A DNA stretch of 32,000 bases from Gemmata obscuriglobus (lineage in GTDB: Bacteria > Planctomycetota > Planctomycetia > Gemmatales > Gemmataceae), in assembly GCF_008065095.1 (NCBI RefSeq), contig NZ_CP042911.1:540001-572000 (forward strand), written 5' to 3'. The position numbers and the translations under genes are program-made. Under the pieces are notes generated by a model. That model was not told where the DNA came from, did not search any database, and saw nothing but the letters and a program-made list of their open reading frames with translations. Of the stretch, positions 7,364-25,960 are shown piece after piece (the first letter of the stretch is position 1; every line of letters starts with the position of its first letter).

Positions 7364-7839
7364 CGCATCCGGCCGCTCCTCTCGTTCGATCGGCAATGCC
7401 GCTCGCCTCGATCGATTCGCGTGTAAGGTATTACTCAGCAAGGCTTTGTCCTCTGATCCGTGTCTGTTCTCGCTACTCACATTTGGCTGACCGTAACCCT
7501 GTTCCTGGGGCTCAAAGGCCGGGATTCGGTGGTAGCAGCACCCCAGCGAACGGCCAGCTCCTGACCAGTCGGACGGTAGCGAATGTCCAGTCGGCGCCCC
7601 GTCGGTGGTAGCCCGTGCGGTCGTGTAACCCCCGTTACAGCGCCGGCAAGTCGGAAGCGACGACGCCTCCGGACAGGCTTCAACCACCGGCTCTGCCGCG
7701 GTCCGTACCGCACAACGCTTCCAACCGGTGCCGAACGCTCAGGTCAGCAGCCCGCTCTTGACCGCTACCCTTTGCGCCGCGAACGGACACCCGACGTAGC
7801 CGGAAGCCATACACGGCTGATGGCAAGCGGTGGATCTGG

Positions 7840-7868
7840 TTATTGCTCCCCCAACCCGTCGCTATCAT
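7840..7868 (+). promoter_or_regulatory. Candidate sigma70-like promoter for the KAP/NACHT pair
   Basis: TTATTG (7840-7845), a 17-nt spacer, then TATCAT (7863-7868), 22 nt upstream of the ATG at 7890. The short leader contains GGAGGAGGAG. Pattern match only; promoter rules in this lineage are poorly known. Confidence 0.2.
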
Positions 7869-7889
7869 GCACGGGGAGGAGGAGCACGA

Positions 7890-9299
7890 ATGTCTGCGCC
7901 CACATTCCTGTCCGACGAGCCTACACTGACAGACCTGCTCACCCGCATGGACCTCGTCCGGCAGGTAGGCGACACGGCCGCCGGTTGCCACCCACCGTGC
8001 GTGCTCGGCGTGCATGGCGACTGGGGTGCCGGAAAGACCAGCTTCCTCCACATCCTCCACCACTACCTCACCGGCACCTGTCCACCGCTCGACGGGCTCG
8101 ACCGTGGTGTGGTGATGACCGAGCATTGGCCGCAAGAATGGCAACCGAAAGACCACGTTGCGGTAATCTGGTTCGAGGCGTGGCGGTATCAACACGAGCC
8201 CGCGCCAGTAGTCGCGCTGCTGCACGAGATTCGCGCGCAACTGCCTACCGCCAGCAAACTGTTCGATTCGGCCAAGAAGATTGGCGAGGTGTCGGTCAAG
8301 TCCGCACTGTTTGCGATGGAGTGGCTCACCAAGCGGGTCGGGGTGCAGGCTTCCAAGGTACAAGAGATCGGCGAGAAATGGGAGAAAGAACATTTCGCCG
8401 AGCAACTTCCCTCGCACACGCTCCGCCAGTTCCTTGAAGACACCCTGCGCCGCCTGCTCCCGCAGGTCAACAGCGCCCGCGTGGTGGTGCTGATCGACGA
8501 CCTGGACCGGTGCGAGGCTCAGGCCGCGTATCGGTTGCTGGAGGGCATCAAAATCTATCTGAACCTGCCGAATTGCGTGTTTGTATTGGGCGTTAATCAG
8601 ACAGTAATTGAGCAGAGCTTGGCAGAGCAGATGGCCAAAGAAAAGGCCGAGAAACCGAGCGATGAAGCCCGGCTCCGTGCCCGCGACTACATGGACAAGA
8701 TCTGCAAGAATTATTGGCACTTGCCTGCGTGCGCCAATTTTGAGGCGCTCGTGAACCGGTGGCTCCGGGACGCCGGCGTGGCCGATTTGGCAGCGAAAGA
8801 CGGGCAGAAACTTGCGCCGGGCACGCTGGGGTTACTGATTCAGCAGCACAAGTGTCTGCCAGCGAACCCGCGACGGATCAAATCGTTCGTGAACACCTTG
8901 GCACGGTTCCTCGCGCACGCCGCCCGGTCCGGTTCGTTGGACACCCCTGTGCCCGAGTTGTGTGTAGTGCTCGCGTACCTGCACCAGTTTAACCCAGAAC
9001 TGTATCGAGTGCTGGAATGGCACGGCCAAGAGTTTTTTAACCTCATCGCGCAGTGGTGTGAGAACCCCGGGATAACGGCTACTCACGACCTGTTCAAGGA
9101 TCTGAAGCCAGCGGACGTGCCGGGTGCCGCTGCTGCGGCGCCGACGCCCGGCGCCGCAGCGTTCCCGTCCACGTTTCCGGACCCAGCTCGGGGAAACGTA
9201 TTCCGCATCCAGTCGCTTGTCCGGTTCCTGAAGAGCCAAGCGTCGCCCGGTCTCACCACCGACATTTTTAAGCAGTGCCTGATCCGGGGGGCTGTATGA
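7890..9299 (+). CDS. KAP-family P-loop NTPase (soluble; no TM insert)
   Basis: ATG at 7890 with a GGAGGAGGAG RBS. Walker A is GVHGDWGAGKTSF. FEAWRYQ box. Walker B is VVVLIDDLDRCE followed by LLEGIKIYLNLPNCVFVLGVN. YMDKICKNYWHLP and NPRRIKSFVNT are present. These are the hallmark blocks of KAP NTPases (Pfam PF07693). No long hydrophobic segment lies between Walker A and B. Confidence 0.9.
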   Translation: MSAPTFLSDEPTLTDLLTRMDLVRQVGDTAAGCHPPCVLGVHGDWGAGKTSFLHILHHYLTGTCPPLDGLDRGVVMTEHWPQEWQPKDHVAVIWFEAWRYQHEPAPVVALLHEIRAQLPTASKLFDSAKKIGEVSVKSALFAMEWLTKRVGVQASKVQEIGEKWEKEHFAEQLPSHTLRQFLEDTLRRLLPQVNSARVVVLIDDLDRCEAQAAYRLLEGIKIYLNLPNCVFVLGVNQTVIEQSLAEQMAKEKAEKPSDEARLRARDYMDKICKNYWHLPACANFEALVNRWLRDAGVADLAAKDGQKLAPGTLGLLIQQHKCLPANPRRIKSFVNTLARFLAHAARSGSLDTPVPELCVVLAYLHQFNPELYRVLEWHGQEFFNLIAQWCENPGITATHDLFKDLKPADVPGAAAAAPTPGAAAFPSTFPDPARGNVFRIQSLVRFLKSQASPGLTTDIFKQCLIRGAV

Positions 9300-12187
9300 A
9301 CACGCGCAGAACCGCAACCCGGCCGGACCTGCCGGACCCGAACAACGACCCGCGGTTGCTCGCGTACCTGCGGTCGGTGAACGACTGGCACGGGTACATG
9401 CGTTTCCTTGGGTTGCCGCACCTGCACGAAACCCCGGATGAGCCACTGTCGCGGTTGTTCGTGGAGCCTTACGTTCACGGTGCGTACCACCGCGCCGATG
9501 AGCCCACGAAAGCGTGGGAAAAGGGGCGGCACCGGCTGATCGACCTGTTCGATGCGAAGAACCCGAATGTCGTACTGTTGGGCGACCCCGGTGCCGGCAA
9601 ATCGACGCTATTGAACTGGGTAGCGTGGAACTTTACCCGCTGGGATGGGGGAGAGTGGCTGGACAAGTTCGGTCCAATGGTGCCGATTCCACTCGTAATC
9701 CGCGAACTGGCTGTTACCCGCGACATCACCTGGAACTCGTTGTGTGACAAGTTTCTGGAGCATGGCGTCGCGAAGGACAAGCTCACCCGTACTGAGTTCG
9801 ATGCAATATTTGCACGTGGGCAGGCGTTCGTACTGGTGGACGGGTTGGATGAACTGTCCGATCTGGAGGTACGAAAGGCATTGAGGGCAGCAATTGCTGA
9901 GGGCATCGCGCGAGCACAATTTCCGCGGATTAATAAGGACAGGCATCTGCCACCCTGGCTTCTAACCTCGCGCATAGTCGGATACGACGAGGTACCATAC
10001 GACGTCCCCACGGATTGGTCCTCACCTGAGCAGGATGCCGATTCAGAAGAGAGCGTCACTCGATCAGCCGAGACGCTCTCTGGACGGACGAACGTACTGT
10101 TGGCACCGGCCCGAGGGCTGAGCGGAGAATTAATGGTTCCAATGCGTCGAGCGTATTGCTGCCCGTTCGACGACAGACAGGTAGATCAGTTTGCACGAAC
10201 GTGGTTCATGGCGAGAGAGACTAAAGGTACGACCGAAGGTACACGCCTTGCAAGCGAGTTCCTCAGCCGGCTGCGATCTGAAGGAGGGCCACTTGCGTTG
10301 GCTCGAATTCCGAACCTACTCACGCTGTTCGCGCTGGTGTACAAGGTGCAACTTGACCTGCCCCATGGTCGGGCGAAACTGTACGACAAAGTTGCCGAAG
10401 CATACCTGGAGTCGATCGACAAGTCACGCGGATTTCTCCCCAGATTTACCCGTGACCGGATGGAAATGTGGCTAGCGTTCGTCGCATTCCACCTCCAAAC
10501 CCGCCGTGCCGCGAACGCAAAGCAAAGAAGCCGCCAGCAAGCGCGGGAAATCCTTATCGGACGAGAAGAACTGCTCAAGCTTCTCGTCGATGAGATGCCA
10601 AAAGTGGGTGGCGCCCCGAGCCGCTCCGAGGCAGAGCAATTCCTTGATTATGTTGCTCGGCGTAGCGGGCTCTTGCTACCCAGGGGCGAGGGGCGATATG
10701 CGTTCATGCATTTGTCATTCCAAGAGTATTTTGCCGCTCGATGCCTTGAGAATCAAATTGCCTCTCCAAAGTGGGTGCGAGGCCGCGATCTGTACCCAGG
10801 CACATCGCGCGACTCGCTGAACGACTATGCCGATAGTGCGGCGTGGACTGAAACGATGCTACTTTTGTTCGAGCGATTGAGTGAGAGGCCGCAGTGGGCT
10901 GAGGAGTTGCGAGAAGCGCTGTTCGGTCCCCGGTATGAGCTACCCAATGATGACACGGTTTCAGAATCGCGAGTACGACTGCTAGCGGAAATACTGATCG
11001 ACCCCTACACTGGGTTGGAATCTCACGAACGCGAGCGAGATTTGCTGACAATCATTGGCTGGATGTTGCACAGCCAACAGCGAGAGCCCTCCAAAAAGCG
11101 GCACGAAAACGCTCTGCCAGTTATTCTCCGGCGCTCAGGGTTCGATCCCGACAAACGCCTTGAGATGCTCTGGACCCAAATACGCCGAGGACTATCTCTT
11201 CGACGTCTTGTGTTGAGCAAAACAGATATAGCTGATCTGTCCCCTCTAGCACCCCTTACGGCGTTAGAGGAGCTGGATCTGAGCGGCTGTGCGGGGGTAT
11301 CGGACCTGTCCCCGCTGGCCAATCTCACCGCCTTACGGTTCCTGGACCTGAGCGGCTGCGCGGGGGGGGCAGACCTGTCCCCGCTGGCCAATCTCACCGC
11401 CTTACGGTTCCTGGACCTGAGCGGCTGCGCGGGGGTGTCGGACCTGGCCCCGCTGGCCAACCTCACGGCGTTAGAGGGCCTGAACCTGCGCGGCTGCGCG
11501 GGGGTGTCGGACCTGTCCCCGCTGGCCAACCTCACGGGATTGCGGCACCTGAACCTGAGCGGCTGTGCGGGGTGGGCGGACCTGTCCCCGCTGGCCAACC
11601 TCACGGGATTGCGGCACCTGAACCTGAACGGCTGCACGGGGGTGTCGGACCTGTCCCCGCTAGCACCCCTTACGGCGTTAGAGGAGCTGGACCTGAGCGG
11701 CTGTGCGGGGGTATCGGACCTGTCCCCGCTGGCCAACCTCACGGCGTTAGAGGGCCTGGACCTGAGTGGCTGCGCGGGGGTGTCAGACCTGTCCCCGCTG
11801 GCACCACACACCGCCTTACGGTTCCTGGACCTGAGCGGCTGTGCGGGGGTGTCGTGCCTGTCCCCACTGGCACCACACACCGCCTTACGGTTCCTGGACC
11901 TGAGCGGCTGTGCGGGTGTGTCGGACCTGTCCCCGCTGGCCAACCTCACGGCGTTAGAGGACCTGGACCTGAGCGGCTGCGCGGGTGTGTCGGACCTGTC
12001 CCCGCTGGCCAACCTCACGGCGTTAGAAGGCCTGGACCTGAGTGGCTGCACGGGGGTGTTGGACCTGTCCCCGCTGGCACCACTCACCGCCCTACAGTTC
12101 CTGGACCTGGGCGGCTGCGCAAGTGCATTAAGTATCCCTGACGAGCTACAGCGCCGTGGTGTTGTGATAATGAGGCCATCGGCGTAG
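9296..12187 (+). CDS. NACHT-family STAND NTPase with C-terminal leucine-rich repeats (NLR-like architecture)
   Basis: ATG at 9296 overlaps the KAP stop (ATGA, 9296-9299). Walker A is VVLLGDPGAGKSTLLNW (about 9581-9607). Walker B is FVLVDGLDEL. Sensor-1-like motif LLTSR. CCPFDDRQVDQFARTWF block. Helical middle region. Then one degenerate and twelve full 23-aa LRR units (LxxLxLsGCaGVsDLSPLAnLTa). Confidence 0.9.
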   Translation: MNTRRTATRPDLPDPNNDPRLLAYLRSVNDWHGYMRFLGLPHLHETPDEPLSRLFVEPYVHGAYHRADEPTKAWEKGRHRLIDLFDAKNPNVVLLGDPGAGKSTLLNWVAWNFTRWDGGEWLDKFGPMVPIPLVIRELAVTRDITWNSLCDKFLEHGVAKDKLTRTEFDAIFARGQAFVLVDGLDELSDLEVRKALRAAIAEGIARAQFPRINKDRHLPPWLLTSRIVGYDEVPYDVPTDWSSPEQDADSEESVTRSAETLSGRTNVLLAPARGLSGELMVPMRRAYCCPFDDRQVDQFARTWFMARETKGTTEGTRLASEFLSRLRSEGGPLALARIPNLLTLFALVYKVQLDLPHGRAKLYDKVAEAYLESIDKSRGFLPRFTRDRMEMWLAFVAFHLQTRRAANAKQRSRQQAREILIGREELLKLLVDEMPKVGGAPSRSEAEQFLDYVARRSGLLLPRGEGRYAFMHLSFQEYFAARCLENQIASPKWVRGRDLYPGTSRDSLNDYADSAAWTETMLLLFERLSERPQWAEELREALFGPRYELPNDDTVSESRVRLLAEILIDPYTGLESHERERDLLTIIGWMLHSQQREPSKKRHENALPVILRRSGFDPDKRLEMLWTQIRRGLSLRRLVLSKTDIADLSPLAPLTALEELDLSGCAGVSDLSPLANLTALRFLDLSGCAGGADLSPLANLTALRFLDLSGCAGVSDLAPLANLTALEGLNLRGCAGVSDLSPLANLTGLRHLNLSGCAGWADLSPLANLTGLRHLNLNGCTGVSDLSPLAPLTALEELDLSGCAGVSDLSPLANLTALEGLDLSGCAGVSDLSPLAPHTALRFLDLSGCAGVSCLSPLAPHTALRFLDLSGCAGVSDLSPLANLTALEDLDLSGCAGVSDLSPLANLTALEGLDLSGCTGVLDLSPLAPLTALQFLDLGGCASALSIPDELQRRGVVIMRPSA
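11198..12130 (+). repeat. Tandem 69-bp coding repeats (LRR cassettes) inside the NACHT gene
   Basis: Twelve full units start at 11264 with an exact 69-nt period (11264, 11333, ... 12023). A degenerate unit lies at each end. Long stretches are identical between units. Confidence 0.9.
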
Positions 12188-13268: not shown

Positions 13269-14837
13269 TTACGGAGTCGGCCAGTCGTCGCTCTCGAACT
13301 CGATCGGGCCGAGTTCGATGGGGCCGCTCCCGCCGTCGGGAACGGTGAGTTTTGCGCCGAGTCGGCTCGCGGCGCGGTAGCCGGCAACCTCGTGCCACAC
13401 GACAAGGCGCCACGCGCCCGCGGGCACGCCCTTCAGCTCGAACCGCCCGTCGGCGCCCGTGACGGCGAAGTACGGGTGGTCGAACGCCCACACGCAGCCG
13501 CGCATCCACGGGTAGATGTCCGAGCGGTACACGTCCGGGACGCGCAGGGCCGGGAGCGGCTTGGCAGTGTGCGCCACGCCCTTTCCGAGCAGCACGTTGA
13601 AGTCGCGGGCGCCGTCGTCGGTCGGGGCGTAGTGGACGTTGGTCGGCACCGGGAGCCGGTTCTCGAACACCACCGCGTCGCCGGCCCGGGCCGCAACCAC
13701 GCGGGGGCGGAACTGCCCGGCCGCCGCGATTACCGCGTGCGTCTGCGGCCTCGCGCCGGCGAGCGCAGGGTGAACCCGCTCGGCCGGGAACTCGGCCCGG
13801 CGGTCGGTCGAGTCCGGTCGCAGCCAGACGACAGCGTCCGCGATCCCGCGGTTGCCCGCGTTCACGCGGACGCCCTCGTCGAACAGAGGGGCGAACGGCT
13901 CCCACACGCTCGCGTCCTTGAGCGCCGCCGTCGCCAGGGCCGTCGGGTTCGGCGCCGCGTGCCCCTTCGGGAACACGACTCGGCCCGACACGGTCGCCCA
14001 CGGAACGCGCTCGGCGGTGTGCGGGGCCACTTCCGCGGGGGCCGTGGCCTGCGCGGAAGCGGTCGGCGCGGCGTCGCTCGCGAACCCGTGCGCCAGCCCG
14101 CCGACCGCGAGCGCCACCGAGGTCAGTAGCGCGGCCGCCTTCAGCCCGACTCCCCGGACCAGCACCTCGTTCGCGAGTACCGTCGCCGCCGGAGACGGCT
14201 TCAGTGCCGGGACCGCGGCCCGCGCCGGCGCCCCGAGTCCGCCCACGAGCAGCCCCGCCCCGAGCGTCACGCCCCGGCGGGCGAGGCGCGAGCGCAGGAG
14301 TTCCTTGCCGCTTTCGAGTCGGCGGCGCAGGGTGCTGACGCTCCACCCCAGTTCGCGCGCCGCCTCGTCCTGGGTGCGCTCTTCGAGGAAGCACGCGACC
14401 AGCGCCGCCCGCATCTCCTCGGGCATCGTTCCCAGCTCTTCGTCGAGGACGCACAGGAGGTCGCTGAAATCGCTGCCCGGGGCGCCCGCTTCCGCCGCCG
14501 GCTGAGCGGCGCGGGCCTCGCGCCGCTCGCGCCGGTGCTCGTGCCGGCGGGCGGCCGACCCGACCCGCCGCGCGGTCCCGAACAGCCACCCGCCGACGGA
14601 CGCCGCCTCGACCGCCTTCTGCGGCGCGCGGGCGAGTACCAGGAACACGGCCTGGAACGCGTCCTCGGCGAGGTGGGCGTCGCGGACCGCCCGGCGGCAC
14701 ACGCCGAACACGAGGCGGCCGTGCCGCTTCACGAGCTGCTCGAACGCGTCCTCGTCGTGCTGCTCCGCGAACCGCGCCAGCAGCGTGCGGTCGTCGAGCG
14801 CGAGGAGCGGGTTCAAAAACGGGGTGCGAGCGGACAT
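13269..14837 (-). CDS. ECF (sigma-70 family) sigma factor fused to hydrophobic segment(s) and a cupredoxin-like C-terminal domain
   Basis: Region 2: HGRLVFGVCRRAVRDAHLAEDAFQAVFLVLAR. Region 4: TQDEAARELGWSVSTLRRRLESGKELLRSRLARRG. Hydrophobic stretches VTLGAGLLVGGLGAPA and AAALLTSVALAVGGLAHGF. The C-terminal 250 aa are paralogous to the product of 12454..13236 (WATVSGRVVFP, NRGIADAVVWLRPD, PWMRGCVWAFDHPYFAVTGADGRFELKGVPAG). Confidence 0.85.
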   Translation of the reverse strand: MSARTPFLNPLLALDDRTLLARFAEQHDEDAFEQLVKRHGRLVFGVCRRAVRDAHLAEDAFQAVFLVLARAPQKAVEAASVGGWLFGTARRVGSAARRHEHRRERREARAAQPAAEAGAPGSDFSDLLCVLDEELGTMPEEMRAALVACFLEERTQDEAARELGWSVSTLRRRLESGKELLRSRLARRGVTLGAGLLVGGLGAPARAAVPALKPSPAATVLANEVLVRGVGLKAAALLTSVALAVGGLAHGFASDAAPTASAQATAPAEVAPHTAERVPWATVSGRVVFPKGHAAPNPTALATAALKDASVWEPFAPLFDEGVRVNAGNRGIADAVVWLRPDSTDRRAEFPAERVHPALAGARPQTHAVIAAAGQFRPRVVAARAGDAVVFENRLPVPTNVHYAPTDDGARDFNVLLGKGVAHTAKPLPALRVPDVYRSDIYPWMRGCVWAFDHPYFAVTGADGRFELKGVPAGAWRLVVWHEVAGYRAASRLGAKLTVPDGGSGPIELGPIEFESDDWPTP

Positions 14838-15146: not shown

Positions 15147-16142
15147 TCAAGCCGGAAGGCCGCATTCGAGGAGCGTGAGTTGGGTCGCCGGAACGGCCGT
15201 CACGGCGCCCACTTCGGCGGGGAGCAGGTACACGTCGCCGGTGCGGAGCGGGTAACTGTTCCCGCCCCACTCCAGCGCCCCGCTGCCGCCGACGCACACG
15301 ACCGCGCGGCACGCGTCCGCCGCCCCGGCGCGGAACGGCGCGGCGCCCGTCCGCCGCTCCAGCGTGAAGTACTCGCACGACACCAGTGTCTCGCGCCGGG
15401 CGGCGCCGTCCGCCGCCGCCGACGGGCGCACCGGGTGGCACGGGCCGCGGCCGAAGTCCGCGCACCCCAGCCCCTCATCAATGTGGAGCTGCCGCGGCTG
15501 CTTGGTCTTCGCGTCCACGCGGTCCCAGTCGTAGAGCCGGTACGTGATGTCGCTCGTCTGCTGCACCTCGAACAGCAGCAGGTCCGCCCCGATTGCGTGG
15601 ACGGTGCCGGCCTCGAGGAACACGCAGTCGCCGACCTCGGGGGTGAAGCTGTGCAGCGTGCCCGGGGTGGTTTTCGCGTCGAGCGCGGCGCGGAAGGCGG
15701 ACGCGCACACGCCCTCGGCGAACCCGGCGTACAGCCGACTGGTCGCGGGGTCGCGGTCCAGCACCACCCAGGCCTCGGTCTTGCCGAACTTCCCGGGGCC
15801 GAGCAGCGCCGCCTGCTGGTCGTTCGGGTGGACCTGGACGGACAGTTCCTGGCGGGCGTCGAGGAACTTGAGCAGCAGCGGGAACCGCCCCTGCGGGGCC
15901 TTCGCACCGCCCACCACGCGCTCCGGGGCGTCGGCGAGCAGCTCGCGCAGCGTGCGCCCGGCGAGCGGCCCGTCGGTGACGCGGCTGGGGCTCCCGTCCA
16001 CGTCGCTGAGCACCCACGCCTCGCCCACCGGGTCGTCGTGACTGACGGTGCGATTCAGGTACGCCGGGAGGCGCCGGCCGCCCCACAGGTTGGTGGTGAA
16101 GATCGGGTCGAACCGGAGCGGGTAGAGCGGCGGGCGCGCCAT
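15147..16142 (-). CDS. manA: Type I phosphomannose isomerase (cupin)
   Basis: ATG at 16142 (MARPPLYPLRFDPIF). Motifs WGG, GEAWVLSD, LLKFLDARQELSVQVHPND, GKTEAWVVL, LEAGTVHAIG, LFEVQQTSDITYRLYDW. The track ORF extends artefactually to 16400. Confidence 0.85.
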   Translation of the reverse strand: MARPPLYPLRFDPIFTTNLWGGRRLPAYLNRTVSHDDPVGEAWVLSDVDGSPSRVTDGPLAGRTLRELLADAPERVVGGAKAPQGRFPLLLKFLDARQELSVQVHPNDQQAALLGPGKFGKTEAWVVLDRDPATSRLYAGFAEGVCASAFRAALDAKTTPGTLHSFTPEVGDCVFLEAGTVHAIGADLLLFEVQQTSDITYRLYDWDRVDAKTKQPRQLHIDEGLGCADFGRGPCHPVRPSAAADGAARRETLVSCEYFTLERRTGAAPFRAGAADACRAVVCVGGSGALEWGGNSYPLRTGDVYLLPAEVGAVTAVPATQLTLLECGLPA

Positions 16143-16389
16143 TCGTGTCTCTCGTGCTCGCGCGGGCCGCGCGGCGCGGGCCGGGTCCGCCCCCGGGCCG
16201 CACCATCTCACGCGCCGCCGATCGCGCTCGTTTCGTTCCCTACCAGATATAGGCGTCCGGGCACGCGCCAACAATGCGAACCGGGGCGCAAGTCGGCCGT
16301 TGCGGCCCGTTACTTGAGTGAATCTGGCGGGAGCAGAAAACCGCCGGGAAACCTCAAGCTCTCGACTCCGAGTCGGGAAGGAAATACCG

Positions 16390-16689
16390 ATGATTCGCAA
16401 ACTGATTCTGGGGGCGGTGGCGGCGGCGGCGGTCGGGTTCGGCGGGGCCTCCGCGACGGCGGGCGAGCCGGTGCGCGGGCCGATCGGCGGGCCGCTGGAC
16501 GTCGGGTTCGTGCCCCCGGGTCACCCGCGCCACGACCACGACTATGTGGTGCTAATCCGGCACTTCGGGCACTGGGACCGGTACGGGCGGTACGAGACCC
16601 GGCACGAGGCCGAGCGCGTGGCCCGGCGCCTGGAGCGCGACGGCCGCCGCGTGCGGATCGAGGTGGTCGAGGACCGGCGCCGGTGGTGA
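16390..16689 (+). CDS. Small secreted hypothetical protein (His/Arg-rich)
   Basis: ATG at 16390 after GGAAGGAAA. Signal-like MIRKLILGAVAAAAVGFGGASATAG. 99 aa, GC3-rich. Confidence 0.55.
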   Translation: MIRKLILGAVAAAAVGFGGASATAGEPVRGPIGGPLDVGFVPPGHPRHDHDYVVLIRHFGHWDRYGRYETRHEAERVARRLERDGRRVRIEVVEDRRRW

Positions 16690-17010
16690 GCGAACTCGGG
16701 ACGCGCACCGTCCCGGCCGCTTGCCGCCGGAACCGGGTGGCGGGTAGCGGCCGGGACGGGTTCGAAATAAATCGGCGCACACCGCGAACCCGTCGGTGTG
16801 CGCCGCGTCTATATCTGCGACGACATCACCATCGAAATAGGACGCCTCCCATGACCGGGTTCATGAATAAACCGCGAAACCCGCAACGCCCGCAGCCGCA
16901 ACGGCGCGGGTTCGGGTTCGGGCGGTTTAATCGCCCCGGACAGTTCCCGAACCGCCCCCGCGCTCAACAGACCGGGTGACGCCAGGCACCGACCGCCTTC
17001 AGCACACGCT

Positions 17011-17065
17011 GAACGCACCGTCGGCCGGGCGTCTCCCATCGAGACGCCCGGCCGACGGTGCGTTC
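17011..17065. other. Perfect 25-bp stem / 5-nt loop hairpin (function unknown)
   Basis: 17011..17035 (gaacgcaccgtcggccgggcgtctc) is the exact reverse complement of 17041..17065. No U-tract follows on either strand. It sits 23 nt upstream of the first tRNA. Confidence 0.6.
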
Positions 17066-17087
17066 GTACGTTCACGGGTTCGCGCAC

Positions 17088-17161
17088 AGCGGTGTGGAGC
17101 CGAATGGTAAGGCGACGCCCTGTTAAGGCGTAATTTGTAGGTTCGATTCCTACCACCGCTG
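17088..17161 (+). tRNA. tRNA-Asn(GTT), non-canonical D region
   Basis: Acceptor AGCGGTG/CACCGCT. Anticodon stem ACGCC/GGCGT with loop CTGTTAA. T-arm GTAGG-TTCGATT-CCTAC. Only a 3-bp D stem (GCC/GGC) after a 4-nt linker. No encoded CCA. Confidence 0.6.
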
Positions 17162-17174
17162 CTCGCTGGTCGCT

Positions 17175-17248
17175 ACGGGGATGGGCTAACGGTATGCCTC
17201 CGGGCTTTGAACCCGGCCACCATGAAGGTTCGACTCCTTCTCCCCGTG
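17175..17248 (+). tRNA. tRNA-Gln(TTG)
   Basis: Acceptor ACGGGGA/TCCCCGT. D stem GGC/GCC. Anticodon stem CCGGG/CCCGG with loop CTTTGAA. T-arm GAAGG-TTCGACT-CCTTC. Unusual 7-nt variable region. No CCA. Confidence 0.65.
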
Positions 17249-17269
17249 CTCGGCGCGGTCGGGACCTGT

Positions 17270-17341
17270 TCCGGGGTAGTTCAACGGTAGCAACGCCGCG
17301 CTCTGAACGCGGAGATGTTGGTTCGATTCCAGCCCCCGGAA
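17270..17341 (+). tRNA. tRNA-Gln(CTG)
   Basis: Acceptor TCCGGGG/CCCCGGA (U1:A72). U8. Anticodon stem CCGCG/CGCGG with loop CTCTGAA. T-arm GTTGG-TTCGATT-CCAGC. No CCA. Confidence 0.85.
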
Positions 17342-17347
17342 CCTCTC

Positions 17348-17456
17348 GAATGCGGAGTGCGGAATTCAGAACGGGGAATTAAAAGCAACGGATTGAAATC
17401 ATTGCTGTGGTTGCTTTGGATTATATTCCGCATTCCGGATTCCGCACTCCGCATTC
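17348..17456. repeat. REP-like nested palindrome between tRNA genes
   Basis: gaatgcggagtgcggaat (17348-17365) is the exact reverse complement of 17439-17456. There is an inner aaagcaac...gttgcttt pair and an extra attccgcattcc half-copy. Confidence 0.85.
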
Positions 17457-17463
17457 AAAACAC

Positions 17464-17536
17464 GCCTCGCACGCTTCAACGGTGAAGCAGCCGGCTTTTA
17501 ACCGGTATACGCAGGGTTCGATCCCCTGGCGGGGCA
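17464..17536 (+). tRNA. tRNA-Lys(TTT)
   Basis: Acceptor GCCTCGC/GCGGGGC (one G:U pair). D stem GCTT/AAGC. Anticodon stem GCCGG/CCGGT with loop CTTTTAA. T-arm CAGGG-TTCGATC-CCCTG. Discriminator A. Position 8 is A rather than U. Confidence 0.75.
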
Positions 17537-17550
17537 CTGGTTCGTAACGT

Positions 17551-17623
17551 CCCGGCGAAGCTAACTCGGTAGAAGCGCCGTGCTGAAAACGCGGAGGAGC
17601 TGGTTCGACCCCAGCCACCGGGA
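17551..17623 (+). tRNA. tRNA-Phe(GAA)
   Basis: Acceptor CCCGGCG/CACCGGG with one C:A mismatch. Anticodon stem CCGTG/CGCGG with loop CTGAAAA. T-arm GCTGG-TTCGACC-CCAGC. Discriminator A. Positions 8-9 are AA. Confidence 0.7.
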
Positions 17624-17692
17624 CCTGTTTTGAAGTTCGGAACTCGGAACGGATCGCGCGGTCCTTGTCGCGATTCCGTGCTCGAAAAGACT

Positions 17693-17764
17693 GCGTTCGT
17701 GAGGTTAGTGGTAGCCTGCTTGGTTCCCAACCAGGATGCGCGGGTTCGAGTCCCGCCGAACGCT
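17693..17764 (+). tRNA. tRNA-Gly(CCC)
   Basis: Acceptor GCGTTCG/CGAACGC. U8. D stem AGGT/GCCT. Anticodon stem CTTGG/CCAGG with loop TTCCCAA. T-arm GCGGG-TTCGAGT-CCCGC. Discriminator U. Confidence 0.9.
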
Positions 17765-17781
17765 CTGCCCGCGCCCGACAT

Positions 17782-17875
17782 CGGGGGCGTACACACGTAG
17801 CTCAATAGTAGAGCACTCGCTTTGGGAGCGGGAAGTTGCCGGTGCGAATCCGGTCGTAACTTTCAACCGCCCCCG
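17782..17875 (+). tRNA. tRNA-Pro(TGG)-like element with a disrupted acceptor stem (possible pseudogene or tRNA-like RNA)
   Basis: Intact D-arm (TA GCTC AATAGTA GAGC). Anticodon arm CTCGC-TTTGGGA-GCGGG. T-arm GCCGG-TGCGAAT-CCGGT. The 7-nt acceptor positions (ACACACG/CGTAACT) pair at only about 4 of 7. Instead, an outer perfect 8-bp helix CGGGGGCG (17782-17789)/CGCCCCCG (17868-17875) closes the structure. Confidence 0.35.
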
Positions 17876-17894
17876 GCACTCGCGCGGGCAACTT

Positions 17895-17966
17895 CAGGAC
17901 GTGGGCCATTGGCTGGCCGCGAGTCTTGGGAACTCGTTCAAGTCGGTTCGATTCCGGCCGTCCTGA
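17895..17966 (+). tRNA. tRNA-Pro(TGG)
   Basis: Acceptor CAGGACG/CGTCCTG (C1:G72). U8. D stem GGCC/GGCC. Anticodon stem CGAGT/ACTCG with loop CTTGGGA (G37). T-arm GTCGG-TTCGATT-CCGGC. Discriminator A. Confidence 0.9.
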
Positions 17967-17970
17967 TCGC

Positions 17971-18041
17971 GCACCGTCCGACGGTTTATCGGCACCGGGC
18001 CTCCGAAGTCTGGTCGGCTGGTTCGACTCCAGCACGGTGTA
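17971..18041 (+). tRNA. tRNA-Arg(CCG), non-canonical D region
   Basis: Acceptor GCACCGT/ACGGTGT. Anticodon stem CGGGC/GTCTG (two G:U pairs) with loop CTCCGAA. T-arm GCTGG-TTCGACT-CCAGC. The best D helix (CCGA/TCGG) starts directly after the acceptor with no 8-9 linker. 71 nt. Confidence 0.6.
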
Positions 18042-18049
18042 CTGTTCGC

Positions 18050-18122
18050 GGGTCGGAAGCTGATACGGAATAGCGGCGGGTTGTTAACCCGCGTGTAGTG
18101 GGTTCGATTCCCACCCGGCCCT
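18050..18122 (+). tRNA. tRNA-Asn(GTT)
   Basis: Acceptor GGGTCGG/CCGGCCC (one G:U pair). D stem GCTG/TAGC. Anticodon stem GCGGG/CCCGC with loop TTGTTAA. T-arm GTGGG-TTCGATT-CCCAC. Positions 8-9 are AA. Discriminator U. Confidence 0.75.
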
Positions 18123-18174: not shown

Positions 18175-18242
18175 TTGTGGCACAGACATTCCTGTCTGTG
18201 CAGTCCTCTCGCGCCGCACAGACATTCCTGTCTGTGCCACAA
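18175..18242. repeat. REP-like element: two copies of the hairpin gcacagaca-ttcc-tgtctgtgc
   Basis: Identical 22-nt hairpins at 18180-18201 and 18216-18237. The outer arms ttgtggcacagaca (18175-18188) and tgtctgtgccacaa (18229-18242) are also complementary. Lies between the tRNA array and the gatB 3' end. Confidence 0.85.
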
Positions 18243-18360: not shown

Positions 18361-19884
18361 TCACACCTTCGCCAGTTCCTCGTCCACGAGGCCGCGCACC
18401 ACCTCGTTCGACACGCCCTTGTTGGCCTTCATCACCTCGCCGACGATCTTCATCTTGGCCGCGTCCTTGCCGCTCTTGAAGTCCGCGACCGCCTTCGGGT
18501 TGTTCGCGATCGCCTGCCTCACGGACTCCCGCAGCGCGTCCGCGTTGACCTCTTTGATGCCCGCTCTCACCTTCGCGGCGGCGAGGTCCAGGCCCTCATC
18601 CACCATCAGCTTGAACACGTCGCGGCGGTCCTGCGAGTTGGTCGGGCCGGTCTTCACGAAGTCCGCGAACTTCGCGGCGTCGAACGGGAACTCCGTGATC
18701 TCCTCCTTGCGCTCGGTCAGCGCGGGGTAGACGAGGTCGCTCATCCGGTTCGCGGCGGCCTTGCCGTCGTTCAGCGCCGTCGCCACCGCCTCGAAGTACG
18801 CCACGGTGGGACGCCCCTTCGCGGTCAGCACCTGCGCGTCGTAAGACGACAGCCCGTACTGCGCCACCAGCCGCTTGCGCTGCTCCTGCGGCAGCTCGCC
18901 CATCGCGGCGCGGGCCTCGGCGAGTTGCGCCTCGGTCACCACCACCGGCACCAGGTCCGGTTCGGGGAAGTACCGGTAGTCGGCCGCATCTTCCTTGTGC
19001 CGCTGGACCACCGTGACGCCCTTCGCGTCGTCCCAGCCGGCGGTCGTCTTCAGCATCTTGCCGAAGCGGAACGTGCCCGCGGTGTCCTTCTGGTACTCCT
19101 CGTAGTGCCGCTTCGCCTCGTAGGTGATGGCCCGGCCGACGGCGCGGAAGCTGTTCAGGTTCTTGATCTCCACCAGCGGCGTGGCGTGGTAGTCCTTGCC
19201 GGTCTCGGCGTGCTCCTTGCCGATCACCGGGACGTGGATGTTCACGTTCGCGTCGCACCGCAGCGAGCCCTCCTGCATCTCGCAGTCGGACACGCCGATC
19301 TCGCGCAGCATCAGCCGGATCTCTTCCAGGTACGCGATCGCCTCCTCGGGCGAGGTCATGTCGGGGTGCGACACGATCTCCAGCAGCGGGGTGCCGGTGC
19401 GGTTGAGGTCCACGAGCGTGTCGCCGCCCTTGCCGCTCTCGTCGTGCAGGTTCTTGCCGGCGTCCTCTTCGAGGTGCGCGCGGATGATCCCGATCTTCCG
19501 GCCCACGAACTCCTTCTTGGGGTCCTTCGCGATGTTGATTTCGAGCCACCCGTCGTGGCTGAACGGCAGGTCGTACTGCGAGATCTGGTAGTTCTTCGGC
19601 AGGTCCGGGTAGTAGTAGTTCTTGCGGTCCCACTTGGTGAAGCCCGGCGCCTGCCCGGGGTGCCGGGCGATCTGGCAGTTGAGCGCCAGCGCCGCCCGGA
19701 GGGCGAGCTTGAACGCCTGCTCGTTCATCACCGGCAGTGACCCGGGCATCCCGAGGCACACCGGGCACGTGGCGGTGTTCGGGGGCAGTCCGAACTTGTT
19801 GAGGCACCCGCAGAACAGTTTGGTCTTGGTGAGGAGCTGGACGTGGACCTCCAGCCCGATGACGATCTTGTACGGCTCGGCCAT
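18361..19884 (-). CDS. gatB: Asp-tRNA(Asn)/Glu-tRNA(Gln) amidotransferase subunit B
   Basis: ATG at 19884 (MAEPYKIVIGLEVHVQLLTKTKLFCGC). CPVCLGMPGSLPV, YYYPDLPKNYQISQ, IGIIRAHLEEDAGK, NRTGTPLLEIVS, RCDANVN and YRYFPEPDL are present. The track ORF extends artefactually to 20085. Confidence 0.95.
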   Translation of the reverse strand: MAEPYKIVIGLEVHVQLLTKTKLFCGCLNKFGLPPNTATCPVCLGMPGSLPVMNEQAFKLALRAALALNCQIARHPGQAPGFTKWDRKNYYYPDLPKNYQISQYDLPFSHDGWLEINIAKDPKKEFVGRKIGIIRAHLEEDAGKNLHDESGKGGDTLVDLNRTGTPLLEIVSHPDMTSPEEAIAYLEEIRLMLREIGVSDCEMQEGSLRCDANVNIHVPVIGKEHAETGKDYHATPLVEIKNLNSFRAVGRAITYEAKRHYEEYQKDTAGTFRFGKMLKTTAGWDDAKGVTVVQRHKEDAADYRYFPEPDLVPVVVTEAQLAEARAAMGELPQEQRKRLVAQYGLSSYDAQVLTAKGRPTVAYFEAVATALNDGKAAANRMSDLVYPALTERKEEITEFPFDAAKFADFVKTGPTNSQDRRDVFKLMVDEGLDLAAAKVRAGIKEVNADALRESVRQAIANNPKAVADFKSGKDAAKMKIVGEVMKANKGVSNEVVRGLVDEELAKV

Positions 19885-19996
19885 GTGCGACGGCTCCCCA
19901 AACTCTTCCGGGTGCGGATGAAAGGGAATTGTAGCGGCCCGCGCCGGAAGGAGAACGGACCGGCCCCGCCGGTTCGCCCCGCGGCCGGAAACGCCA

Positions 19997-20048
19997 TTTT
20001 TGACAGGATCAACGGGATGGTGCTCGATCCTGTCGATCCCGTTAAAAA
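19997..20048. repeat. Cluster of four GATCCYGTY-type 9-mers (two reverse, two forward) flanked by T5 and A5
   Basis: gacaggatc (20002-20010), aacgggatg (20011-20019), gatcctgtc (20026-20034) and gatcccgtt (20035-20043). The order is A B ... A' B', i.e. crossed (pseudoknot-like) complementarity. Lies 113-164 nt upstream of the gatB start. Confidence 0.7.
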
Positions 20049-20081
20049 CGATTCGGGACCCGCCGGCGCTGCTTCCTGGTC

Positions 20082-20193
20082 TCAAGTCACAGGTCGGCAG
20101 GTCTCAAGTCACCAAGGTCGCTCGCGATGCTTGTGACTTGGGACTTGGGACTTGGGAGCCGCGACCTGTGACTTGAGACTTGCCGACCTGTGA
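20082..20193. repeat. REP-like imperfect palindrome built from gtgacttg / gacttgg motifs
   Basis: 20087-20112 pairs with 20168-20193 (26 nt, 1 mismatch). The centre holds three tandem gacttgg heptamers (about 20133-20157). Further gtgacttg copies run to 20211. Lies in the gatB / M28 divergent intergenic region. Confidence 0.8.
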
Positions 20194-24652: not shown

Positions 24653-25960
24653 CAGGGCAAACGCACTCAATCCTCGGGATTTTTCAGTAGTACCTGTTCG
24701 AGGTAGGTATTATCCCATCCGGCCTTGAGTCGCCGGTTCTTGATCCCACATTTGGCGTTTGCCTTCTTCAACATCGCCAAGGCGATCTTGCGCACGAGGG
24801 CCATATTCTGCGGGCCGTGCCCTTCACGGAGTCGGTGGTCGTCTTCTCGGAACGCGACATCCAGCACCCAATGGCATGAATTCTCGATGCACCAATGAGC
24901 CCGGATCCACGTTTGGAACCGCTTGGCCGATGCCTTCCGCGAGCTGATGTAATACCGCACCTCGTCGCTCGTCCTACCGGCGACCGTGCGGCTGCTGACG
25001 AGCACCACGACGGACCGCAACCGGGGCCACACATTCCGGTCCCGGATCGACTCCAGGTCGTCGATCACGAAGCAGAACCGCATCTCCTCGCGCCCGTGGC
25101 CCGTTCCTTCGTTGAGGTCGGTCGAGCGGCCCGCGTAGCTCGCCTCTAGGGCCCCCTCGGCCAACCGCTGGATGTCCTCGAGCAGCCGCGGCTGGTTGTC
25201 CTTGACCGCCAGCAGGTAGTCCCCCTTGGCGGCCACGATCTGCTGGGCGATGTCCTTCTGGGTGCCCATCGCGTCGATGCTCACCAGGGCCCCCGCGAGG
25301 TCCAGCCGCTCCAGCAGTTCCGGGATCGCGGTGATCTCGTTGGACTTCTCGTCGGTCTTCACCTGGGCCAACGTGAGGCCCAACTGCTGAGCCCATGCGC
25401 TGACGATGTGTGTGGCCTTGCGAGCCCCCGTGCCGGTGACCCGCTTGGACCCCCGCATGGTCTTCCCGTCGATCGGGATGTGGGGCACCCGGAGGCCCTC
25501 GGCGGCGTCCGCGACCCACGCCCGGAAGCACCGCCCGAACGCCTCCGGGCGGACCAGCGCGAACACCCGGTTGAGGGTGTCGTGGGACGGAATCCCGTTG
25601 CGCAGCGTCAGCCCCAGCCGGTCCCGGAACCAGGACTCCTTGGCCCGCGCGAACTCGGCGATCGACACGAAGTCATCGGCCCCGACGATCGTCCCACAGG
25701 TCACGATCATGAGTACATCAATCAAGTCGTGGAAGCACTTCAACTCGACCCGCGGATCCGGGATCTGGGACAGGTACTCGATTAACGGGCGTGGGCCGGG
25801 GGCGGCACTCATCGGCAGACTCCGAGGCGGTGAGGGCGCGCCAGAATCATATGGAGGCGGGGCCGCACATGCGCAGGAGGCGAGCGATGGCCGCTCGATC
25901 ACACGCCTCAAAATTAGCTAGAATCCAGCGATTCCTAGGGGATTGAGTGCGTTTGCCCTG
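24653..25960 (-). mobile_element. ISAs1-family insertion sequence, apparently intact (1308 bp)
   Basis: Perfect 21-bp terminal inverted repeats: CAGGGCAAACGCACTCAATCC at 24653-24673 and its complement at 25940-25960. Flanked by a 9-bp direct repeat GAAGCACAA (24644-24652 and 25961-25969). Single uninterrupted transposase ORF. Confidence 0.88.
24667..25812 (-). CDS. ISAs1-family (H-repeat-associated type) DDE transposase
   Basis: ATG at 25812 (MSAAPGPRPLIEYLSQIPDPRVELKCFHDLIDVLMIVTCGTIVGADDFVSIAEFAR is the typical ISAs1 N-terminal block). PIDGKTMRGS, VSIDAMGTQKDIAQQI, DYLLAVKDNQ, YYISS and IRAHWCIENSCHWVLDVAFRED are present. The stop codon lies inside the left IR. Confidence 0.9.
   Translation of the reverse strand: MSAAPGPRPLIEYLSQIPDPRVELKCFHDLIDVLMIVTCGTIVGADDFVSIAEFARAKESWFRDRLGLTLRNGIPSHDTLNRVFALVRPEAFGRCFRAWVADAAEGLRVPHIPIDGKTMRGSKRVTGTGARKATHIVSAWAQQLGLTLAQVKTDEKSNEITAIPELLERLDLAGALVSIDAMGTQKDIAQQIVAAKGDYLLAVKDNQPRLLEDIQRLAEGALEASYAGRSTDLNEGTGHGREEMRFCFVIDDLESIRDRNVWPRLRSVVVLVSSRTVAGRTSDEVRYYISSRKASAKRFQTWIRAHWCIENSCHWVLDVAFREDDHRLREGHGPQNMALVRKIALAMLKKANAKCGIKNRRLKAGWDNTYLEQVLLKNPED

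Follow-up and report, generated by a model that had tools for sequence, protein, structure and literature searches.

The stretch of the Gemmata obscuriglobus genome analysed here (32,000 nucleotides of contig NZ_CP042911.1, positions 540,001 to 572,000; hereafter the window) contains a dense array of tRNA-like genes, preceded by a short open reading frame (ORF), referred to as the leader ORF, and by a long terminator hairpin (Table 1). The ten distinct plus-strand genes of the array, at 17088-18122, are the union of two sets of predictions. ARAGORN finds eight plus-strand tRNAs between 17088 and 18123, and the Rfam model RF00005 recovers nine of the ten genes with scores of 43.6-61 bits, the gathering score being 29. 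Gly-CCC and a defective element with anticodon TGG (element X) are detected by Rfam only, and Arg-CCG, which Rfam misses, by ARAGORN only. The genes are packed at about 10 per kb (10 genes in 1,035 bp), and inspection of the sequence revealed no encoded CCA after any of the ten. Stand-alone Gemmataceae tRNAs score 59-72 bits with the same model, so that array members score below their neighbours, yet are clearly tRNAs.

An initial annotation of this DNA, which had called for scoring by tRNA models, described ten cloverleaves on one strand within 1,035 bp and gave their anticodons as GTT, TTG, CTG, TTT, GAA, CCC, TGG (defective), TGG, CCG and GTT. The two programs bear out the number and placement of these genes and return identical anticodons, and the lack of encoded CCA that it had noted was found again in the sequence. 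The spacers are 2-120 nt with the ARAGORN and Rfam boundaries, a slight revision of the 4-122 nt given originally. The departures from the standard tRNA core that it had listed (residues other than U at position 8, the connector of the first tRNA-Asn, the variable loop of Gln-TTG, the C:A pair of Phe and the D arm of Arg) are all present in the sequences and in the Rfam alignments, as is the canonical appearance of Gln-CTG, Gly-CCC and Pro-TGG. The combination of U8, a 2-nt connector and a 4-bp D stem is kept by Gln-CTG, Gly, Pro and Gln-TTG, the last of these deviating only in its 7-nt variable loop. It is not found in either of the two tRNA-Asn (Asn#1 and Asn#2), in Lys, in Phe or in Arg-CCG, where the D stem abuts the acceptor stem.

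Table 1. Features of the array locus. Positions are those of the window unless another locus is named.
Feature	Position	Strand	Description
Inverted repeat GGCGCACACC/GGTGTGCGCC	16774-16804		Spans the spacer of the promoter-like motif; A-run before it
Promoter-like motif GCGAACC-N14-GCGTCTATAT	16784-16814	+	AAC ... CGTC, resembling the type used by ECF sigma factors
Leader ORF	16851-16979	+	42 codons plus TGA, MTGFMNKPRNPQRPQPQRRGFGFGRFNRPGQFPNRPRAQQTG; ATG at 16851, stop codon at 16977-79
Antiterminator	16974-17037	+	Stop-codon region (GGG UGA CGCC ...) paired with the terminator 5' arm
Terminator hairpin	17011-17065	+	GC-rich, 25 bp, 5-nt loop; -59 kcal/mol
tRNA-Asn(GTT) #1	17088-17161	+	7-bp acceptor, 4-nt connector UGGA, GCC/GGC D stem, D loop otherwise canonical, G73
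tRNA-Gln(TTG)	17175-17248	+	A1-U72, 7-nt variable loop
tRNA-Gln(CTG)	17270-17341	+	Canonical, U1-A72, 61 bits
MITE-like insert	17348-17456		Perfect 18-nt terminal inverted repeats GAATGCGGAGTGCGGAAT; in the Gln-CTG/Lys spacer
tRNA-Lys(TTT)	17464-17536	+	A8 C9, 5-bp D stem
tRNA-Phe(GAA)	17551-17623	+	C1-G72, A8 A9, C6:A67
tRNA-Gly(CCC)	17693-17764	+	Canonical, U73, 54.3 bits
Element X, anticodon TGG	17791-17862	+	Degenerate, tRNA-like; Rfam local match, model positions 5-66
tRNA-Pro(TGG)	17895-17966	+	Canonical, C1-G72, A73
tRNA-Arg(CCG)	17971-18041	+	Without 8-9 linker, C8, 3-4-bp D stem, 6-bp anticodon stem
tRNA-Asn(GTT) #2	18050-18122	+	G1-C72, A8 A9, U73
Palindrome GCACAGACAGGAATGTCTGTGC, 22 nt	18180-18201, 18216-18237		Two identical copies between the array end and convergent gatB
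Seventh-slot orthologues	L083 8342-8414; L119 1698-1772; L085 8443-8515; L113 1774-1845		

The neighbourhood of the array is that of a chromosomal housekeeping region, with genes for FabH, FKBP, PMI, an extracytoplasmic function (ECF) sigma factor, GatB, an M28 peptidase, PdxJ and LarC, and no mobile or phage genes were found flanking the array. On one side it is anchored by the gene of a PMI-like protein (15147-16139, minus strand), 100% identical to an entry under the name Gemmata obscuriglobus, and on the other lies gatB (18361-20085, minus strand), whose product is 96% identical to GatB of Gemmata algarum. None of 80 Gemmataceae gatB loci has an array beside it. A strain-specific insertion at gatB was considered and rejected: it is precisely at the gatB 3' end that synteny with G. 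algarum breaks off, which marks a rearrangement breakpoint. On the PMI side, the array occupies the same place in Frigoriglobus tundricola, in Gemmata sp. SH-PL17 and sp. G18, in a Gemmata-like genome of 10 Mb and in several metagenome-assembled genomes (MAGs), including a more distant Gemmataceae MAG. Two further close relatives also have it there.

A metagenome search with a 19-nt pattern taken from the unusual Asn#1 matched 51 contigs, of which 37 carry arrays that begin with the Asn#1 type followed by Gln, Gln, Lys, Phe, Gly and Pro in the same gene order. A second clade of lower-GC arrays (clade 2) has the order Asn, Gly, Gln, Gln, Lys, Phe, Pro; at one clade-2 locus the neighbouring proteins are closest to those of Zavarzinella and other Gemmataceae. 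Telmatocola sphagniphila has no tRNAs near its UDPGP gene, a neighbour of one clade-2 array, and is uninformative in this respect. The Asn#1 pattern had no match among the viral contigs of IMG/VR, and BLAST of the array against phage and plasmid collections returned generic single-tRNA similarity only. The array counts 10 genes in G. obscuriglobus and 12-13 in relatives, and the ancestral order is best explained as Asn, Gln, Gln, Lys, Phe, Gly, a variable slot, Pro, Pro, Arg, Asn, Arg. The shared PMI locus, the metagenome arrays and the lack of viral matches together point to an old, family-wide and vertically inherited Gemmataceae operon.

This distribution, obtained by the comparison of relatives that the initial annotation had recommended, argues against the explanation proposed there, namely that the array is either an accessory or backup set gained by horizontal transfer (from phage, for instance, or resistant to nucleases) or a decaying duplicate. 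Neither its synteny across genera nor the absence of flanking mobile genes and of viral counterparts is expected of a foreign acquisition. There are nevertheless several properties on which such an explanation could draw: members without U8 or with aberrant D arms, scoring under stand-alone tRNAs; a degenerate element X and the deletion of Pro-CGG in G. obscuriglobus; and a miniature inverted-repeat transposable element (MITE) and a rearrangement breakpoint that touch the array. Moreover, genomes of Gemmataceae have been reported to carry 83-88 tRNA genes (PMC7534041, PMC7397252), a number which makes tRNA redundancy likely without proving it.

The question of decay can be addressed through the base pairing of the orthologues, in which the unusual cores prove to be under constraint. 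In 20 unique orthologues of Asn#1, all 400 of 400 stem cells (100%) hold standard pairs, and compensatory changes affect seven pairs in 31 cells, two of those pairs lying in the acceptor stem. Slid registers are only 32-65% paired, and none of 500 shuffles reaches the observed score. Pairing and covariation thus fix the register of this tRNA as a 7-bp acceptor stem followed by the 4-nt connector UGGA. Similarly, among 18 Arg-CCG and Arg-ACG orthologues, 99.7% of the cells are paired and nine pairs show compensatory changes, which supports an architecture without an 8-9 linker and with a 3-bp D stem and a 6-bp anticodon stem. The A8 or G8 state of Lys is kept in 16 unique orthologues, and a residue other than U at position 8 is conserved throughout the Gemmata clade in Lys, Phe and Asn#2. 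The odd features are therefore family-wide and their stems evolve by compensation, with only the seventh element looking degenerate, so that decay, like foreign origin, is a most improbable account of the array. What may survive of the idea of an accessory or backup set is a conditional supply of particular decoders; no observation points to resistance to anticodon nucleases in particular.

The array members may be compared with the naturally non-canonical tRNAs covered in a review (PMC7609411), such as allo-tRNAs, tRNASec and tRNAPyl. They resemble these in being elongator-type cloverleaves with an altered connector or D-arm geometry that has been kept by selection. They differ in retaining the 7/5 acceptor/T geometry, the changes being instead a 4-nt connector (Asn#1), no connector (Arg) or a residue other than U at position 8 (Lys, Phe and Asn#2). 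For the study of tRNA structure, processing and modification, these conserved cores have an interest of their own.

Some array members of G. obscuriglobus differ from those of relatives. In tRNA-Phe, positions 17556 and 17617 (6:67) form C6:A67 where relatives have a U6.G67 wobble; both sides have changed, and the new combination takes the isosteric C.A+ geometry and not that of a Watson-Crick pair. The Gln pair of G. obscuriglobus (17175-17341; 72-75 nt, U8) is composed of types shared with the distant arrays L096, L101 and L103, all three of which contain the Gln-TTG type. The closest relatives (L083, L084 and L139) have two Gln paralogues of 76-77 nt with G8, a residue conserved in the Gln pair of the sister species, and with an enlarged D arm. 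This difference from the closest relatives implies gene replacement within the array.

Upstream of the array, the leader ORF has a composition that mirrors the array itself. Of the 41 residues after the start, 37 belong to the set N, Q, K, F, G, P and R, that is, to the seven amino acids served by the array, as against 36% in 20 genes of the window (binomial P=1e-12). With the anticodons of the ancestral array, 36 of the 41 codons are readable (P=2.5e-14), and a hand count gives 30 of 41 for the reduced anticodon set of this window. Orthologues of the ORF, represented by 31 unique sequences, end 67-128 nt before Asn#1. They range in length from 12 to 51 codons, every indel being a multiple of 3, and both ends are conserved, with ATG ACC at the start and ACC GGN TGA at the end.

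The choice of synonymous codons follows the same logic, in genomes of about 67% GC. In the pooled leaders, Lys is encoded by AAA 31 times and never by AAG (AAA makes up 14% of its family in the window genes), Gln by CAA 89 times and CAG 46 times (CAA 24% in the window genes), and Asn by AAT 51 times and AAC 32 times (AAT 7%); for Gly, GGG is used 64 times, GGA 31 times and GGC nine times, where GGC accounts for 50% of the family in the window genes. The leader thus uses the codons of Lys-UUU, Gln-UUG and Gly-CCC/UCC and shuns those of tRNAs outside the array, for example Lys-CUU, which is a stand-alone gene in relatives. At the level of clades, leader and array also vary together in part. Arg makes up 4-7% of the leader in clade-2 arrays, which have no Arg tRNA, and 13-20% where the array has Arg tRNAs, and the four-gene array Asn-Gln-Gln-Lys of L103 is preceded by a leader of only 12 codons, MNRNPQAQHATG.

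Conservation in the leader extends to the third codon positions. In the core block CAA CGC GGG TTC GGG TTC GGG CCG TTT AAT, it is 0.87 at third positions and 0.90 at first and second positions, which suggests selection on codon or nucleotide identity beyond that on the peptide. The peptide itself matches no Pfam or NCBIfam family, and among 5.8 billion proteins its only two matches are unnamed entries of 41 residues, each from a close relative. The invariant leader core CGCGGGTTCG (16913-16922) is identical to 17739-17748, where the T arm of tRNA-Gly(CCC) begins. This identity may be due to chance, to common ancestry or to an RNA signal that has gone unrecognised.

Strong nucleotide conservation of this kind could also be expected if the leader were an RNA element that is not translated, similar to a riboswitch or a T-box, and responded directly to a ligand or a tRNA, the ORF being incidental. 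Besides the third positions, the 10-nt identity with the T arm of tRNA-Gly would fit such an element, and as a single sequence the leader region folds far better than shuffles (z = -6.5). However, RNAalifold found no conserved structure inside the leader ORF, and an incidental ORF would hardly keep its start, stop and frame over 12-51 codons with all indels in multiples of 3. Region 16650-17100 contains no Rfam family at the gathering score; up to E=1 only sub-threshold, hairpin-driven matches to unrelated families appear. The T-box covariance model in particular has no match at its gathering threshold in the window, nor at E<=1 in 16650-17100. An RNA leader without translation is consequently quite improbable.

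Between the leader and the first tRNA, the terminator is supported by an alignment of 18 sequences, in which 15 pairs are conserved and eight of them show compensatory changes; a simple terminator scan had missed this long hairpin. In most relatives the hairpin is followed by a U-tract of T4-T7 (T6 in the closest relative, L139). In the tightest loci, the distance from this T-run to tRNA-Asn is just 7-13 nt, which leaves no room for a separate promoter there. The 5' arm of the terminator can also pair with the region of the leader stop codon. This antiterminator reaches -39 kcal/mol when the terminator 3' arm is excluded, its 5' strand contains the stop codon, and the same architecture is present in most sequences of the Gemmata clade. 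It is recovered by RNAalifold from 19 sequences, with 93% of the cells paired as against 29-57% in slid controls, and three pairs show compensatory changes, a covariation score that none of 500 shuffles reaches. In L106, for example, the stop codon has changed from UGA to UAA and the base on the partner strand has changed to match.

These elements bear on the simplest alternative, a plain constitutive housekeeping operon. In that case the short ORF would code for a small protein of unrelated function and have a terminator of its own, and the array would be transcribed from another promoter or by unregulated read-through. Deep conservation and synteny, as seen for housekeeping genes, would agree with it, as would the canonical appearance of Lys and Phe in clade-2 arrays and the lack of a U-tract after the G. 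obscuriglobus terminator. It does not account for the many loci whose T-run comes within 7-13 nt of the first tRNA, nor for the fit of ORF composition and codons to the array anticodons (P ~1e-12 to 1e-14), nor for a stop codon embedded in a covarying alternative hairpin, and the putative small protein would belong to no known family. Although less improbable than the alternatives discussed above, such an operon is unlikely.

A candidate promoter lies upstream of the leader ORF. From a small ORF at 16318-16689 to the first tRNA, about 400 nt of non-coding DNA are strongly conserved in an alignment of six genomes. The motif GCGAACC-N14-19-GCGTCT occurs exactly once in each of 33 array loci, always upstream of the leader, and is absent from 80 gatB loci (about 1.1 Mb of Gemmataceae DNA). 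Promoters of ECF sigma factors typically have AAC at -35 and CGTC at -10, separated by a spacer of about 16 nt (PMC3426412), and by this resemblance the motif may be an ECF-type promoter. A scan with the sigma-70 consensus found no promoter. The inverted repeat GGCGCACACC/GGTGTGCGCC is conserved in Gemmata and Frigoriglobus, though not every array has it, and could be an operator or a terminator of antisense transcription. An ECF sigma factor gene (13269-14837, minus strand) is located two genes from the array; its product has a long C-terminal extension with a weak CarboxypepD_reg match, and it is syntenic in Gemmata species but not in Frigoriglobus. The array motif was not found upstream of this gene, so that the neighbouring sigma factor cannot be assigned to the motif.

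Taken together, the locus is probably a conserved Gemmataceae tRNA operon under leader-peptide transcription attenuation, by which it would sense its own decoding capacity. This assessment applies to the family; that the same attenuation works in G. obscuriglobus itself is less certain. Transcription from the conserved ECF-type promoter-like element would be expected to start about 7-10 nt after GCGTCTAT. The transcript would open with the short leader ORF, nearly all codons of which could be read by the operon's own tRNAs, and would continue into the strong terminator hairpin ending a few nucleotides before the first tRNA. With the leader stop codon lying in the 5' strand of the hairpin that sequesters the terminator 5' arm, rapid decoding would bring a ribosome to the stop codon, where it would cover the antiterminator strand, allow the terminator to form and switch the tRNA genes off. 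A ribosome stalled on leader codons because the corresponding tRNAs are scarce, uncharged or damaged would instead let the antiterminator form first, and RNA polymerase would enter the array. Without a following ribosome the antiterminator would likewise form first, and since there is no conserved 1:2 'protector' hairpin, the default in the absence of translation would be read-through. The polycistronic precursor would then be cut into tRNAs, to which CCA would be added enzymatically because no gene encodes it. As the leader is written in the codons of the array, such a loop would hold those tRNAs at the level needed for decoding.

Several observations weigh against attenuation of this kind. 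In the window the U-tract is degenerate (GUACGUUCAC), so that in G. obscuriglobus itself the switch may be leaky or may no longer work. The clade-2 antiterminator folds are no better than those of shuffled sequences. A long hairpin inside the ORF, seen in the minimum-free-energy fold of the single sequence and considered as a pause or protector structure, was dropped because the alignment does not support it. The match of leader to array is imperfect: L110 and L127 have Arg-rich leaders and no detected Arg tRNA, the leader of L096 keeps Gly and Pro codons with no Gly or Pro tRNA in its array, the frequent leader codons ACC and ATC/ATT have no decoder in the array, and CCC is readable only through wobble by Pro-TGG. 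At L087, a distant MAG, the upstream design differs from the usual leader. The nucleotide conservation of the core block could stem from an unrecognised RNA element and not from codon selection, and translation of the leader ORF is itself presumed from its sequence. Furthermore, transcription and translation are reported to be spatially separated in G. obscuriglobus (Gottshall et al. 2014, as cited in PMC6212462); such a separation, if general, would oppose a mechanism in which a ribosome has to follow the polymerase closely.

The region upstream of the four-gene array of L087 (about 9400-9560, minus strand) contains three tandem overlapping mini-ORFs (MKLGPAKPHGG, joined by ATGA).

Leader-peptide attenuators are known from amino-acid operons (trpL, hisL, pheL, leuL, thrL and ilvL) and from the control of pheST by pheM. 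In these, an ORF with many diagnostic codons is combined with two mutually exclusive structures, an intrinsic terminator and an antiterminator that forms or fails to form according to the position of the ribosome. The Gemmataceae locus shares with them the short codon-enriched ORF and the mutually exclusive antiterminator; a covarying terminator hairpin likewise stands before the genes that would be regulated, with T4-T7 after it in most relatives and a degenerate U-tract in the window. It differs in that its cargo consists of tRNAs and not of enzymes or synthetases, in that the leader would report on seven amino acids and about eleven codons and not on a run of one, and in the absence of a conserved 1:2 hairpin. 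Like T-box riboswitches, it would tie the choice between terminator and antiterminator in a leader RNA to tRNA status, but T-boxes bind uncharged tRNA directly, without an ORF, and control genes for aminoacyl-tRNA synthetases and amino-acid metabolism. No description of leader-peptide control of tRNA operons was found in full-text literature searches, nor in Rfam, Pfam or NCBIfam. By analogy, the proposed switch is a variant of the known attenuation principle, its new elements being the tRNA cargo and the multi-amino-acid leader.

Other dense clusters of tRNA genes offer further comparisons. L-arrays (Santamaria-Gomez et al. 2021), such as the trn operon of Anabaena sp. PCC 7120 (PMC8421152), are also co-directional, dense and probably polycistronic, with expression that appears conditional and linked to translation. 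However, L-arrays contain 20-43 genes, are patchily distributed and spread by horizontal transfer, and the Anabaena operon owes its induction under translational stress to promoter repeats (PMC8421152), whereas the Gemmataceae arrays have 10-13 genes, are inherited vertically at a fixed locus and carry a leader ORF and a terminator. L-arrays are also supernumerary to a full housekeeping set of tRNAs; for the present array, the 83-88 tRNA genes of related genomes and the loss of Pro-CGG in G. obscuriglobus give no more than indirect hints of this. The tRNA array unit, as defined by Tran et al. 2015 (PMC4758250), has at least 20 tRNA genes at a density of at least 2 per kb. The present array, with 10 genes in 1,035 bp, is dense enough for this definition and shares with such units the duplicated specificities, but its 10 genes (12-13 in relatives) are too few.

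The slot occupied by element X is a variable one. Element X is the orthologue of Arg-TCG in the sister species, and the anticodon at this position differs between genomes, being TGG in the window and TCG, TAG, GAA or ATT elsewhere. It has conserved acceptor mismatches, C2.C71 (C.C) and A3.A70 (A.A), and the T loop UGCGAAU, and is enclosed by a flanking stem (17782-17788/17869-17876) in which one compensatory change is seen in Gemmata. The element in the seventh slot may thus not be an ordinary tRNA. Relative to the sister species, G. obscuriglobus has lost Pro-CGG from the array by deletion, and the terminal Arg-ACG is missing because of the rearrangement breakpoint.

Repeats are found within and beside the array. 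The MITE-like insert in the Gln-CTG/Lys spacer folds into a structure of -56 kcal/mol (z = -7.3), and a related insert is present in the close relative L139 at 2140-2215, in a different spacer, between the two Gln genes. The pair of palindromes GCACAGACAGGAATGTCTGTGC coincides with the synteny breakpoint relative to G. algarum; each could be a REP-like (repetitive extragenic palindromic) repeat or a bidirectional terminator. Elsewhere in the window, an insertion sequence (IS) element at 24667-25911 (minus strand) encodes a transposase with DDE_Tnp_1 and DDE_Tnp_1_assoc domains and has no counterpart in the G. algarum locus L001, which is collinear in other respects. Over 7583-12187 the GC content is lower, 57-60% compared with about 68-70%; this segment, with genes for a 970-aa NACHT-LRR protein and a KAP-family P-loop NTPase, is possibly an acquired defence-type island.

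A more speculative extension of the attenuation model would combine the regulation of the array with its unusual tRNAs. The array might constitute a stress-inducible reserve of decoders with altered cores (no U8, remodelled D arms), transcribed under the control of an ECF sigma factor and released when ribosomes stall on a leader written in its own codons. Without U8 these tRNAs would also be without 4-thiouridine at that position (s4U8). The operon would then monitor the quality of translation and restore a tRNA pool that has been damaged or depleted. This is a tentative suggestion, considerably less probable than attenuation as such. A sensor of this type works only with a ribosome immediately behind RNA polymerase, so that its conservation would, if the suggestion is true, show that translation is co-transcriptional in Gemmata. 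The locus also provides a genetically testable case for the disputed coupling of transcription and translation in this genus.

Bacterial tRNA genes are usually described as controlled at their promoters by growth rate and the stringent response. If the attenuation model is correct, a tRNA operon gated by a leader that its own products decode would provide direct feedback on decoding capacity. It would represent a compact natural sensor that registers whether specific tRNAs are available, among them the decoders of the rare codons AAA, CAA and GGG, and would explain why an unusual set of tRNAs has stayed together, with its order fixed, throughout a bacterial family.

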